Below, piece by piece: positions 1 through 4,200 of a stretch of 4,200 nucleotides of DNA (position 1 is the stretch's first letter; each line of letters begins with the position of its first letter). The notes beneath the pieces are model-generated. The model worked only from the letters and a program-made list of their open reading frames with translations, was not told the origin of the DNA and did no database searches. This DNA comes from a virus (lineage: Duplodnaviria > Heunggongvirae > Uroviricota > Caudoviricetes). A program made the position numbers and the translations under genes. The DNA lies in the IMG/VR virus record IMGVR_UViG_2541047928_000001, positions 1 to 4,200 of that record; one strand, written 5' to 3'.

Positions 1-265
1 GCTTGTGAATTTGTATCGTCATGCCGCTTTGAGTGGTGACTACAACGACAGAACCAGGCTGAAGACTGTTAAGATTGAATGCTTCGTAAAACGAATCCAA
101 TGCCAGTGCTTTTTTATTCTTTCTGTTCCACCAACGCCATCCCTTGCTACAGGCTACACTGACAATCCACTGTCCACTCCTGTAAGCCATATAAAACCAG
201 ATGAGCAAAACCTGAAGGAAGGCTATCCAGTCAATAATCGTATATTTCGCGAAGGAGTCCATCAC
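1..265 (-). CDS. Partial CDS (N-terminal part only, continues past window start): small predicted membrane protein, MMDSFAKYTIIDWIAFLQVLLIWFYMAYRSGQWIVSVACSKGWRWWNRKNKKALALDSFYEAFNLNSLQPGSVVVVTTQSGMTIQIHK...
   Basis: Hand translation of the minus strand. ATG at 265-263 (second ATG at 262-260) overlaps the stop of the upstream gene at 262-264 (ATGA). A perfect SD AGGAGGT lies 4-7 nt upstream. This frame has no stop codon down to position 1. A roughly 20-residue hydrophobic stretch is followed by a W/K/R-rich segment. Absent from the ORF track, presumably because no stop lies inside the window. Confidence 0.5.
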   Translation of the reverse strand, partial: MMDSFAKYTIIDWIAFLQVLLIWFYMAYRSGQWIVSVACSKGWRWWNRKNKKALALDSFYEAFNLNSLQPGSVVVVTTQSGMTIQIHK

Positions 266-756
266 TTCACCTCCTGCGGCGGTTCCGGTAGCGGCATCCA
301 GTGGGTTACACCGCCAATTGGCTCATCGTCGTCGTACTCCAATGCTGCTATATAGAACCCGTCACGACGAGAATAAGAAATCCCTGACATTACAATGCCA
401 TCAGAAACAACAATAATGTCACCCGTTTCTTCCGGCATTCGATCACTACAGCTTATCCAACCATCCGGAGTTACCGGCACTGGCTTGGCGGTATAAAGCG
501 GTGTTATATCTGCCCGAAAATTACATGCTTTATGCAGCCGCACCCACCGTTCGACTTCTGCTTTGTCAGAATACATACCAGTGAACGTGTTATATTCACG
601 GTCAATTTGCGTGAAGGTTACCTTCCACGCCACCGGCTCTGCCTCAAGCGATGCCAGTGCAATCCGTGCCAGTTCCATTTGTTCGCCACGGGTAAGCCCG
701 TTTTCAAGCGGGTATTTAATGAACAATTCGATACGTTCTTTAGTGATAGTGCTCAT
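262..756 (-). CDS. DUF551-like phage protein (164 aa), function unknown
   Basis: Track ORF 262..798 trimmed to the internal ATG at 756-754, which has a strong SD (AAAGGAGAG, 5-nt spacer) and sits 1 nt after the stop of the upstream gene. The ATG at 798 has no SD and would overlap the upstream gene by 40 nt. The C-terminal half (GWISCSDRMPEE ... VTHWMPLPEPP) resembles the DUF551 motif as I recall it; not search-verified. Confidence 0.65.
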   Translation of the reverse strand: MSTITKERIELFIKYPLENGLTRGEQMELARIALASLEAEPVAWKVTFTQIDREYNTFTGMYSDKAEVERWVRLHKACNFRADITPLYTAKPVPVTPDGWISCSDRMPEETGDIIVVSDGIVMSGISYSRRDGFYIAALEYDDDEPIGGVTHWMPLPEPPQEVK

Positions 757-757
757 A

Positions 758-1402
758 TCACTCTCCTTTGATGCGAATGCCAGCGGCGCGGGAATCATTC
801 CATCGCTTTACTTCTTCACGAATTACGTCAATGCATTCTTTCGAATCCATTAGGTAATCTTCATCAAAAAGACGTTCCTGTTCGTTTTCTATCGCAACAA
901 TGATTGCTTCAACTAACTTTTGTGCCTGAGAACCACTTTCTAACTCTGCAATGCGCTTCTCTGCGGCCTCTGCCCTGCATTGTTCCCGTTGGAACATTTT
1001 GTGGGTGCGGTCGAGCGCCTCAAGTCTGGCTGCTGATGTTTTCTCTTCTGCTTCAAGCTCAACGCGCAGCTTCCCTACCGTTAGCGCAATATCCTCGTTC
1101 TCCTTGTCGCGGGATTTTATGTATTGCTGGTTTCTTTCCCGTTCATCCAGTAGTGCCAGCGCAACATTTGGATTAAAGGCAGCAATAAATTCAGCGTTTG
1201 CGTAAGCCTGAGCATCTGTTTCAACCAGGCAGTTAACATGACATTCTGCAATCACGCCACCGGGTTCTCCTTTCCATTTTTGACAAACAAAAACTCCTGT
1301 TAAATTGCCGTGCTGGTTAACAGATGTATGCCCTACGATGTAGCTTCCTTTAGTTGCTTTCTCTGCCTTTTCACGCAGTGCCTGATAGTTAATCTCGCTC
1401 AC
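758..1402 (-). CDS. ead/Ea22-like family protein (214 aa)
   Basis: Track ORF. GTG start at 1402-1400 overlaps the upstream stop (GTGA); SD GGAGG lies 7 nt upstream. The N-terminus ([19 protein letters not shown]...) and AAFNPNVALALLDE motif resemble ead/Ea22-like proteins of lambdoid prophages. The central region is charged and coiled-coil-like. Confidence 0.7.
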   Translation of the reverse strand: MSEINYQALREKAEKATKGSYIVGHTSVNQHGNLTGVFVCQKWKGEPGGVIAECHVNCLVETDAQAYANAEFIAAFNPNVALALLDERERNQQYIKSRDKENEDIALTVGKLRVELEAEEKTSAARLEALDRTHKMFQREQCRAEAAEKRIAELESGSQAQKLVEAIIVAIENEQERLFDEDYLMDSKECIDVIREEVKRWNDSRAAGIRIKGE

Positions 1403-1623
1403 TCTTCATCCTCCAAGTCGGCAACGGCGTCCATCACATCAGAACCGCGAATAACCTCAAAAGCACGGCAGGCCATTTGAAATACCAGTTGCTCTTGCGG
1501 GTGAGGAGACTCCCAATATTTGAAGCCTGGGCGATGCGTGTACCCCATCATTGAATAAAAATCACCAGCAAGCTTAATCGCGGCATCGACAAGCTCTCTG
1601 TTAGTCATTCTTTTTCCGCTCAC
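1399..1623 (-). CDS. Hypothetical small protein (74 aa as called), acidic C-terminus
   Basis: Track ORF 1399..1644 trimmed to an in-frame GTG at 1623-1621, preceded by SD AAGGAGG (6-nt spacer) and overlapping the upstream stop (GTGA). An alternative ATG at 1608 would give 69 aa. No recognisable family. Confidence 0.5.
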
Positions 1624-1787
1624 TGGTTGCCTCCTTTGCGCCACATCGCATTCAGATATTTGTTTTGATTCACTGACGGAAAAGAATTTCTCTTAAGCAA
1701 TTCCTCTCTCGATGGCATTGGCTTTACGCGTTGGCGAATAATCATTTCTGCCGGAAGAATGCCGGGATTGTATGCAAGTCCTCTCAT
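1620..1787 (-). CDS. Hypothetical small basic protein (55 aa)
   Basis: Track ORF 1620..1820 trimmed to the ATG at 1787-1785, which has SD GAGGA (7-nt spacer) and starts 10 nt after the upstream stop. The ATG at 1820 lacks an SD and overlaps the upstream gene. Net basic composition. Confidence 0.45.
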
Positions 1788-1797
1788 GGTAAATTCC

Positions 1798-2094
1798 TCA
1801 GTCATTACTGATAGCGCCATAGCGTGAGCGGTAATTACGCAGGCGCGGGTCGATATATTCAGGGAATTTGTCTATTGTCGCTTTTCGCAACGGTCTCATT
1901 GCTGTTTCGTTTGTTCGGTCCTTCTCCTGTTTTAGCGCGAGTTGTATATCGCGTCGGTACATCCGTTCTGCTTTTGTTTCTGGTGTCAGAGCAAGAAACG
2001 CGTCGAAATTGTTTTTGATATTCTCCAGCACCTCCGCCTTGGAGCTACCGGAGCAGTTGCGCGGGTCATCCGCACCATACAGAGGCGCTGGCAT
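1798..2094 (-). CDS. Hypothetical protein (98 aa)
   Basis: Track ORF. ATG at 2094-2092 with a weak SD (AAGG, 8-nt spacer), 23 nt downstream of the preceding stop. Same strand and tight spacing as the rest of the operon. No recognisable family. Confidence 0.55.
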
Positions 2095-2117
2095 AATGGG
2101 AGCCTTATTTTCAGTAA

Positions 2118-2705
2118 TCAGAAAGCAGGGTAATCGTTCTGGCTGTAACCATAATCATCTGCATGATTCTGGCTTACGTTTTTAGAGCGATTGTCTTTAT
2201 CTTTGAGGCTGGCAACCATGTCGGCGATAGTTTCTGGTTGCTTGCCTTCTGCCTTTTCTTTAAGGGTTTGACCTGTTTGTGCAATAAACGGGATGCGTAT
2301 TTCCATCTGGTAGCTGTCTGCGCCAGTCTTTTTGTTTGTGGTTAATACTTTCTGGAGCACTAACCCGATTTTCTTTCCATGAAATTCAGGTGCAACAAAT
2401 TTACTGGCGGAAACCATATGCTGCGTTAATTGTCCAATCCCGGCACACCCCATCATGGCGTGAACGACATTTGCGCCAAATTTGTTTTCCGTTCCGTCAT
2501 TTTTCTGAACACAAACGCTAAGATACTGGATTTTACGTCCGTCGTCGGATTCTCCAGAAAACTCAATAAATTTGGCTCCTTTTTCTGATTTCTTTAGTTC
2601 TGCTTCAGTAATGGTAATGATATGGGCGCCAGTTTCGTTAATAAAACCACCTTGCCCTGCGGTCAGTGCTGCTTCTTCGTTATAAGTAAAAATCACGTTG
2701 CTCAT
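2118..2705 (-). CDS. Putative ssDNA-binding partner of the adjacent ATPase (195 aa); possibly T7 gp2.5-like rather than a canonical SSB
   Basis: Track ORF. Its ATG overlaps the ATPase stop (ATGA), indicating translational coupling. The C-terminus ...ADDYGYSQNDYPAF is an acidic/aromatic tail ending in Phe, reminiscent of SSB and gp2.5 C-terminal tips. The N-terminus MSNVIFT loosely resembles T7 gp2.5 (MAKKIFT). There is no canonical SSB OB-fold signature. The functional call is an inference. Confidence 0.55.
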   Translation of the reverse strand: MSNVIFTYNEEAALTAGQGGFINETGAHIITITEAELKKSEKGAKFIEFSGESDDGRKIQYLSVCVQKNDGTENKFGANVVHAMMGCAGIGQLTQHMVSASKFVAPEFHGKKIGLVLQKVLTTNKKTGADSYQMEIRIPFIAQTGQTLKEKAEGKQPETIADMVASLKDKDNRSKNVSQNHADDYGYSQNDYPAF

Positions 2706-3382
2706 GCGGCGTTTTCCTTAATTTGATGAACATTATTGATGCCGTAGTAATCACAAACAGTGGCATCGACGAAAGAGAGATCGTTATCAATCTCATTGGA
2801 ATCAAACATTCCTATTGGGGATTTAACAGTGTCTGCACCGTTGTTTTTCGTGGTGAAAAAGAACTGGTCATCGCGGGTAAGGGTGCGAAGAACTATAGTA
2901 AACATGCCTTCGACAGTGATTTTCTCGTCCAGCATTTTGCCGATAGTCTTCATTTTCACACGCCCCATAGGGGTTTCTTCGGTGTGTGCGAGAAAATAGA
3001 CTCTCAGGTCATCAGGTGCATCCTGTGCAGCCTTAATCACCTCCCATGCGTGGCGGCCTATCTCAGTGAATTTATCAAACGATTTTTCTTCTGAGCGGCG
3101 CATAAACTCATTGCTCATCACATACTGGAAGTCATCAACAATAACGATTCTTTTCCCGTATTCGTGAGCACGCTTAATTACGGCAACTATTACGTCCCAT
3201 TTGTCAGTGGTAACTACGGTTCCTTTTTTTGCTCTGGCATCCCATGCCAGCCAGTCTTTTGATTTAAATGGAAGCGGCTTGCCTATTGGTTTTATAAGTA
3301 TTGCTTCCTCTGGATTGATATTTCTCATGCTGGTTGATTTTCCGGTGCCAGATTCACCGAGTATTAATGTCGCAGTTCCCAT
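2702..3382 (-). CDS. P-loop ATPase, probably Sak4-like (AAA_24 / RecA-like core) phage recombination protein (226 aa)
   Basis: Track ORF. Walker A GESGTGKST at residues 9-17 and a Walker B-like hhhhDD motif (RIVIVDD). Size and N-terminal P-loop fit the small RecA-like Sak4 family. It sits where lambdoid phages carry their recombination module, directly after kil. SD GAGG with a 6-nt spacer. Confidence 0.7.
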   Translation of the reverse strand: MGTATLILGESGTGKSTSMRNINPEEAILIKPIGKPLPFKSKDWLAWDARAKKGTVVTTDKWDVIVAVIKRAHEYGKRIVIVDDFQYVMSNEFMRRSEEKSFDKFTEIGRHAWEVIKAAQDAPDDLRVYFLAHTEETPMGRVKMKTIGKMLDEKITVEGMFTIVLRTLTRDDQFFFTTKNNGADTVKSPIGMFDSNEIDNDLSFVDATVCDYYGINNVHQIKENAA

Positions 3383-3390
3383 AATTTGCC

Positions 3391-3579
3391 TCAGAATGGT
3401 AATTCGGATGGGGAGGAAAGAAACTCACGCTCATTCATGCGCTCTCTTTGTGCCTGCCATAAGCAAAGTTGTTTCTTTGATTTATCTCCCGCTTTACGCC
3501 AGTAACGAGCCTCAGCAATGTGATATTCTCTTTTTAATCGACTTAACTCTGGAGTTTTCGCCAGTTCTACCGGAATCAT
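3391..3579 (-). CDS. Hypothetical small basic protein (62 aa)
   Basis: Track ORF 3391..3591 trimmed to the ATG at 3579-3577, which has SD GGAGGT (5-nt spacer) and overlaps the kil stop (ATGA). Lys/Arg-rich. No recognisable family. Confidence 0.5.
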   Translation of the reverse strand: MIPVELAKTPELSRLKREYHIAEARYWRKAGDKSKKQLCLWQAQRERMNEREFLSSPSELPF

Positions 3580-3689
3580 TTTGACCTCCATTTTCTGTAG
3601 GCTTCGACGGCCTCACGAAACATCTTTTCATCGCCAATAAAAGTGGCGATAGTGAATTTAGTCTGGATAGCCATAAGTGTTTGATCCAT
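3576..3689 (-). CDS. kil: Kil-like host cell-division inhibitor (37 aa as called)
   Basis: Internal ATG at 3689-3687 of track ORF 3576..3815, with SD AGGAG (8-nt spacer). The product MDQTLMAIQTKFTIATFIGDEKMFREAVEAYRKWRSK matches my recollection of the lambda Kil N-terminus. It starts 32 nt inside the cIII 3' end, the same overlap I recall for lambda. The upstream part of the track ORF is an artefact of the overlapping cIII frame. Confidence 0.7.
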   Translation of the reverse strand: MDQTLMAIQTKFTIATFIGDEKMFREAVEAYRKWRSK

Positions 3690-3822
3690 TTTTTGGGACT
3701 CCTGGCTGATTAAGTATGTCGATAAGGCGTTTCCATCCGTCACGTAATTTACGGGTGATTCGTTCAAGTAAAGATTCGGAAGGGCAGCCAGCAACAGGCC
3801 ACCCTGCAATGGCATATTGCAT
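3658..3822 (-). CDS. cIII: CIII, FtsH/HflB protease inhibitor that stabilises CII (54 aa)
   Basis: Not in the ORF track (54 aa). Hand translation from ATG 3822-3820 to TAA 3660-3658 gives MQYAIAGWPVAGCPSESLLERITRKLRDGWKRLIDILNQPGVPKNGSNTYGYPD, which matches lambda CIII as I recall it. SD AAGGAG at 3834-3829 with a 6-nt spacer. Confidence 0.85.
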   Translation of the reverse strand: MQYAIAGWPVAGCPSESLLERITRKLRDGWKRLIDILNQPGVPKNGSNTYGYPD

Positions 3823-3840
3823 GGTGTGCTCCTTATTTAT

Positions 3841-3871
3841 ACATAACGAAAAACGCCTCGAGTGAAGCGTT
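3841..3871 (-). terminator. Candidate intrinsic terminator or regulatory hairpin between the 97-aa ORF and cIII
   Basis: Minus-strand RNA: AACGCUUC, loop ACUC, GAGGCGUU (8 bp including one G-U pair), followed by UUUCGUU. It lies just upstream of the cIII SD. Likely read through under antitermination if this is a pL-type operon. Confidence 0.35.
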
Positions 3872-3894
3872 ATTGGTATGCGGTAACGCCGCGC

Positions 3895-4188
3895 TCAGGC
3901 GGCTTTGATAGTCATATCATCTGAATCAAATATTCCTGATGTATCGATATCGGTAATTCTTATTCCTTCGCTACCATCCATTGGAGGCCATCCTTCCTGA
4001 CCATTTCCATCATTCCAGTCGAACTCACACACAACACCATATGCATTTAAGTCGCTTGAAATTGCTATAAGCAGAGCATGTTGCGCCAGCATGATTAATA
4101 CAGCATTTAATACAGAGCCGTGTTTATTGAGTCGGTATTCAGAGTCTGACCAGAAATTATTAATCTGGTGAAGTTTTTCCTCTGTCAT
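3895..4188 (-). CDS. Hypothetical acidic protein (97 aa)
   Basis: Track ORF. Its ATG at 4188-4186 overlaps the TAA of an upstream gene that ends at 4188-4190 (TAATG). The composition is strongly acidic (about 16 D/E against 5 K/R), with a D-rich C-terminal region. No recognisable family. Confidence 0.6.
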   Translation of the reverse strand: MTEEKLHQINNFWSDSEYRLNKHGSVLNAVLIMLAQHALLIAISSDLNAYGVVCEFDWNDGNGQEGWPPMDGSEGIRITDIDTSGIFDSDDMTIKAA

Positions 4189-4200
4189 TACGTCATGGTC

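Follow-up and report, generated by a model that had tools for sequence, protein, structure and literature searches.

A lambda-type cIII gene in the leftward early region of a lambdoid mosaic

The window, by which we mean the whole stretch of 4,200 nucleotides analyzed here, carries all of its credible genes on the minus strand. In the order of transcription these are ea10, cIII, kil, a gene for a 62/66-aa protein of PHROG 1723, and genes for a Sak4-like ATPase, an SSB-like protein and Abc2, followed by two small proteins, an Ead/Ea22-like protein (214 aa) and a DUF551 protein (178 aa; 262-798, minus strand). The gene ea10 (DUF2528) is represented by its 3′ part (3895..4200, minus strand), which matches PF10800 with 143.7 bits over profile positions 11-104. 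The listed 97-aa ORF corresponds to residues 26-122 of the 122-residue lambda Ea10, and the gene runs off the window end. Farther downstream lie the Sak4-like ATPase (226 aa; 2702-3382, minus strand; PHROG 2872 and Pfam AAA_24), the SSB-like protein (195 aa; 2118-2705, minus strand; PHROG 743, annotated as DUF669 in APC_JM3.2) and the anti-RecBCD protein Abc2 (1798-2094, minus strand).

Between ea10 and kil, the ORF listing of the window contains a minus-strand reading frame that runs from ATG to TAA at exactly 3658..3822 (54 codons plus the stop) and encodes the product MQYAIAGWPVAGCPSESLLERITRKLRDGWKRLIDILNQPGVPKNGSNTYGYPD. The first-pass annotation had placed a 54-codon ORF at these positions without giving a strand and had read its product as lambda CIII. 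Both statements proved correct, with the minus strand now added: pairwise alignment with lambda CIII (NP_040620; lambda 33299..33463) showed 100% identity over 54 of 54 residues (E 2e-41). The DNA differs from lambda cIII by a single synonymous change, AAA in place of AAG at Lys44. The product matches the Lambda_CIII family (PF02061) with 105.4 bits (E 1.5e-30; cut-off 25.7 bits) over all profile positions (1-42 of 42) and PHROG 550 (phrog_550) with 109.4 bits. The similarity search against lambda CIII suggested earlier was carried out with both the pairwise alignment and tblastn, the latter revealing the CIII of the window in 324 phage records, including 117 with at least 99% identity, which span Escherichia, Stx-converting, Salmonella, Yersinia and other phages. 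Searching PDB sequences with the 54-aa product gave chance matches only (E > 0.4), and no solved CIII structure. A frame of only 54 codons, overlapped by other ORFs on both strands, might be taken for a chance small ORF of no coding significance, but its 100% identity to a characterized protein, together with matches in three independent libraries at E values no higher than 1e-30, disposes of this explanation completely. Both the gene and its setting are confirmed as already known ones. A plus-strand ORF (3716..3865, 49 aa) runs antisense to cIII and was treated as a shadow on the ground that conservation lies with the cIII frame.

As the first-pass annotation had remarked, cIII falls below the size threshold of the ORF track: the default of 60 aa omits the 54-aa frame and shows an overlapping 79-aa ORF (3576..3815) in its stead. 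It had also regarded the 79-aa ORF as a spurious extension of the kil frame that partly masks cIII, and this was borne out by the Lambda_Kil family match (PF06301, 73.8 bits), which spans no more than residues 44-74 of this ORF. The kil gene proper occupies 3576..3689 on the minus strand (37 codons plus TGA; identified by PF06301, PHROG 3924 and the RefSeq/APC_JM3.2 annotation) and shares 32 nt with the end of cIII, read in a different frame, an overlap of equal length being present in lambda. Its translation is MDQTLMAIQTKFTIATFIGDEKMFREAVEAYRKWRSK, which matches PHROG 3924 with 93.7 bits over Kil residues 1-37, and a kil gene of 114 nt is annotated at the corresponding place in RefSeq AR_0017 and APC_JM3.2. 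In lambda, RefSeq and APC_JM3.2, kil starts at the internal ATG, which is position 3689 in the window, and therefore the 42-codon N-terminal extension (3690..3815, minus strand) is an out-of-frame read through cIII; a Pfam search found no family match over it.

The opposite reading, in which the 79-aa ORF is a real gene for a long Kil and the 54-aa frame is incidental, draws on the 79-aa ORF being the longest one listed across 3576..3822 at the default threshold, on one public gene-call set of the related prophage in CP024886 that has a 79-aa Lambda_Kil product in the place of cIII, which is absent, and on the existence of a PHROG 'Kil' profile with 89 positions (phrog_2461). This reading has a negligible probability, given that the Pfam Kil match is confined to the region downstream of the internal ATG, that the 37-aa product matches PHROG 3924 over its full length by itself, and that lambda Kil is a 47-aa peptide made from the homologous internal ATG (PMC11762379). 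In addition, ATG 3689 has its own Shine-Dalgarno (SD) sequence, AGGAG at 3699..3703, 9 nt upstream, while ATG 3815 lies 13 nt from the cIII SD, and it is the cIII frame that is conserved at the protein level across the P22, HK75 and Yersinia phages. The 79-aa ORF was rejected as a gene, with the Kil domain and the kil SD both fitting the internal ATG at 3689. The profile phrog_2461 itself matches CIII at its positions 2-39 and Kil at its positions 43-78, which suggests that it was built in part from fused or mis-called cIII-kil ORFs.

The short Kil of the window shows the traits of its family, namely a short peptide with a helix-turn-helix core and a C-terminal RSK/RSSK motif. It ends in KWRSK, which is the HK629-type tail. 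A Kil with this type of ending is active and blocks division (PMC11762379).

The first-pass annotation had ascribed a strong SD to cIII, and the sequence AAGGAG (plus-strand CTCCTT) was indeed read at 3829..3834 on the minus strand, separated from the cIII ATG by a spacer of 6 nt and identical in lambda. The SD lies within a cIII mRNA translational control element (3777..3835, minus strand), on which the first-pass annotation is silent and which was identified by cmscan as RF01804 (Lambda_thermo, "Lambda phage CIII thermoregulator element") with 88.5 bits over model positions 1-59 of 59. The gathering score of this model is 50 bits, and it gave the single Rfam match in a scan of the whole window. 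The same score (88.5 bits) was obtained for lambda, HK75, a Stx2a phage and the AR_0017 E. coli prophage, and 83.4 bits for ES18; in the cmscan of relatives, P22, APC_JM3.2 and the Yersinia phage fell below the gathering score. The minimum free energy fold of the leader is the RF01804 consensus hairpin, with the SD and AUG paired with codons 10-14 (-27.5 kcal/mol, z -2.4). A temperature-dependent switch of lambda cIII between an occluded and an open ribosome-binding site (RBS) is credited to Altuvia et al. 1989 in a passage of PMC6524683. Nearest-neighbour folding of the 92-nt leader of the window did not reproduce this published two-state switch: in constrained ViennaRNA calculations, the best open-RBS fold was about 9-10 kcal/mol less stable than the occluded hairpin at 25, 37 and 45 °C. 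Thermoregulation of cIII in the window may be supposed solely from its sequence identity with lambda.

A hairpin resembling an intrinsic terminator and followed by a T-run (AACGCTTCACTCGAGGCGTT TTTCG) was detected by a terminator scan at 3847..3871 on the minus strand. The hairpin itself (3852..3871) lies 30-49 nt upstream of the cIII ATG and is identical in lambda. N-modified leftward lambda transcripts pass terminators of this kind. In HK75, the homologous hairpin differs in two loop bases and bears a terminator label from its depositors, and annotated terminators are also present upstream of the cIII genes of P22 and ES18. Neither of the lambda records J02459 and NC_001416 has annotated named lambda terminators. 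The whole upstream stretch (3823..3899, 77 nt) is lambda DNA except for three bases beside the ea10 stop. The hairpin upstream of cIII may be part of the tL2 cluster (Luk and Szybalski 1983).

These features belong to a block of lambda-like DNA, which blastn delimited to 3587..4200 (lambda 33228..33841), with 98.4% identity over 614 bp, 10 mismatches and no gaps. The CIII protein (54 of 54 residues), SD, RNA element and terminator hairpin are those of lambda, and the gene order is also shared in having ea10 upstream and an overlapping kil downstream. Within cIII, the codon for Lys44 differs from lambda, and past kil codon 34 lambda has gam, bet and exo and the window has another recombination module. 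No further match was found by blastn of the rest of the window against lambda 31000-35700. The lambda homology ends at 3587-3591, at an ATG that starts gam in lambda and comes first in the 66-aa ORF of the window; the junction between the two modules coincides with a gene boundary. The C-terminus of Kil therefore differs, ending in KKWILILKLRSSKSIH in lambda and in RKWRSK in the window. Over 2118-3591, the lambda Red genes gam, bet and exo are replaced by the PHROG-1723, Sak4-like and SSB-like genes, then Abc2. This non-lambda module with the Sak4-like ATPase, SSB-like protein and Abc2 is seen in E. coli prophages and Lederbergvirus-type phages.

The genes ea10, cIII and kil keep their position on one strand, with cIII immediately upstream of kil, and P22, HK75 and ES18 are arranged alike. 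According to the first-pass annotation, cIII anchors the entire window as a lambdoid early-left operon. To the extent that all genes share one strand and are ordered as in a pL operon, this claim can be retained, but lambda-like DNA is restricted to 3587..4200. We consider it nearly certain that 3658..3822 is an intact lambda-type cIII in a pL-type leftward early operon belonging to a lambdoid phage or prophage of an enterobacterium, most probably E. coli or a close relative.

A second mosaic breakpoint is located at 3881. Many E. coli prophages, including AR_0017 and CE10, are 99.5% identical to the window over 644..3881 and then continue with an Nmad5-family gene, in contrast to ea10 here. 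Among the phage records and complete E. coli genomes searched, none covered at least 80% of the window, and the junction 3857..3900 had no exact match in a pattern scan of species-representative genomes. The 178-aa DUF551 protein had no exact match in a collection of 15 billion proteins, and a look-up of the 214-aa Ead/Ea22-like protein led to related E. coli prophages adjoining torS. The window is one more lambdoid mosaic.

A mosaic that none of the searched phage records or complete E. coli genomes contains in full, and whose DUF551 protein is without an exact public record, could also belong to a defective prophage, with cIII being intact in sequence but a silent remnant that has no present function. 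The occurrence of relatives with premature cIII stops, at codon 47 in many and at codon 29 in ES18, points in the same direction. We judge such a remnant improbable, as all ORFs of the operon within the window are open and match their families over the full length, and the SD, RNA element and terminator are all intact. Moreover, mosaicism is normal among lambdoid phages and is no sign of decay.

CIII proteins of related phages and prophages differ in length, with 41 aa in HK75, 43 aa in the Yersinia phage, 46 aa in AR_0017 and the Stx2a phages, 52 aa in P22 C3, and 54 aa in the window. The 46-aa CIII of E. coli prophages and Stx2a phages (WP_001198858, titled 'protease FtsH-inhibitory lysogeny factor CIII') shares residues 1-46, the leader and the RNA element with the protein and transcript of the window, but has TAA at codon 47, where the window has TCA (3682-3684), with the loss of the residues SNTYGYPD. 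Codon 47 of cIII is also codon 3 of kil, and the C-to-A change appears in the overlapping frame of these relatives as Kil Q3K. Among the extracted loci of relatives, variation at codon 47 was observed in L003 (5305-5445), L009 (401-565) and L010-L015 (about 3700).

More distant members of the family, P22 C3 and the CIII of HK022/HK75, are likewise encoded upstream of kil and behind a terminator and contain the ESLL(E/D)RITRKLR.GWKR core; P22 C3 and HK75 CIII differ from the protein of the window in overall protein identity (62% and 80%, respectively) and in their N- and/or C-terminal segments. The last eight residues of CIII are probably dispensable, because close relatives stop at codon 47, and a dispensable tail is in line with the sufficiency of the core formed by residues 14-37. 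The ES18 homologue of cIII (401-487 of its extracted locus) is cut short by a stop at codon 29, and its annotated product is the 28-aa gp52. This homologue could be a pseudogene, or else a minimal form with only half of the 14-37 core. The junction combination of the window, ea10-cIII-kil joined exactly at the gam start codon to the Sak4-like, SSB-like and Abc2 genes, was not found whole in the collections searched. There is a slim chance that the 54/46-aa polymorphism tunes CIII stability or Kil potency. If true, the variation between 54 and 46 aa would represent a small natural switch in the balance of lysis, lysogeny and host killing.

The core of the window's CIII (residues 14-37, PSESLLERITRKLRDGWKRLIDIL) is identical to the lambda core, R32 included. 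It is the best-conserved segment in an alignment of six members (the lambda-type protein, the 46-aa AR_0017/Stx2a form, APC_JM3.2, HK75, P22 and Yersinia). Its hydrophobic moment (muH) is 0.67, compared to 0.25 ± 0.13 in shuffled sequences, 0.2% of which reach 0.67. Lambda CIII is a 54-residue peptide in which residues 14-37 are both essential and sufficient for activity (PMC1838920). It forms an oligomeric amphipathic α-helix, which competitively keeps CII off FtsH and is also a substrate of this protease, and the R32A mutant protein is dominant negative (PMC1838920). The inhibition of FtsH (HflB), with stabilization of CII and sigma-32, was established experimentally for the lambda protein, which has the identical sequence (PMC1838920). 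Bacillus SpoVM acts in a similar way: this short peptide with an amphipathic helix inhibits FtsH and is also degraded by this protease (PMC1838920). In contrast to the phage lysogeny factor CIII, SpoVM is a host sporulation peptide, and the likeness refers to the mode of action, with no sequence kinship claimed.

By identity with the characterized lambda protein, the copy in the window would be expected to inhibit FtsH and to promote lysogeny. In such a scheme, cIII would be transcribed from the minus strand by N-antiterminated transcripts that pass the upstream hairpin terminator, and its translation would begin at the strong SD, access to which would be governed by the alternative structures of the RF01804 mRNA element. 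The 54-residue product would then form an oligomeric amphipathic helix through its core residues 14-37 and competitively block the membrane protease FtsH (HflB), by which it would itself be degraded. The transient protection of the activator CII by CIII would push the infection toward lysogeny. This prediction presupposes a functional phage with a CII to protect, as pL, N, cII and all other parts of the phage are beyond the window ends.

The value of the cIII finding lies in annotation and orientation only, and no new biology follows from it. Once cIII is recognized, the window can be oriented and identified as a leftward early region of lambdoid type, and the border between the lambda-type block and the non-lambda recombination module is marked. 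ORF tracks with a length threshold, and some gene callers as well, routinely drop or mis-call genes as short as cIII (54 aa) and kil (37-47 aa), and the mis-calls give an out-of-frame ORF of 79 or 89 aa in place of the two genes. Labels in public records also vary. In GenBank J02459 (J02459.1), the cIII CDS at 33299..33463 is labelled 'kil(host-killing;54)', and in several phage records the cIII stretch bears only the label 'Kil protein' or 'host-killing protein'. The record MW057783.1 ('Campylobacter phage CJLB-4', 48,361 bp) encodes a CIII that is 100% identical to that of lambda at 33222-33383, a lambda-like coordinate, and may consist of lambda DNA rather than that of a Campylobacter phage.
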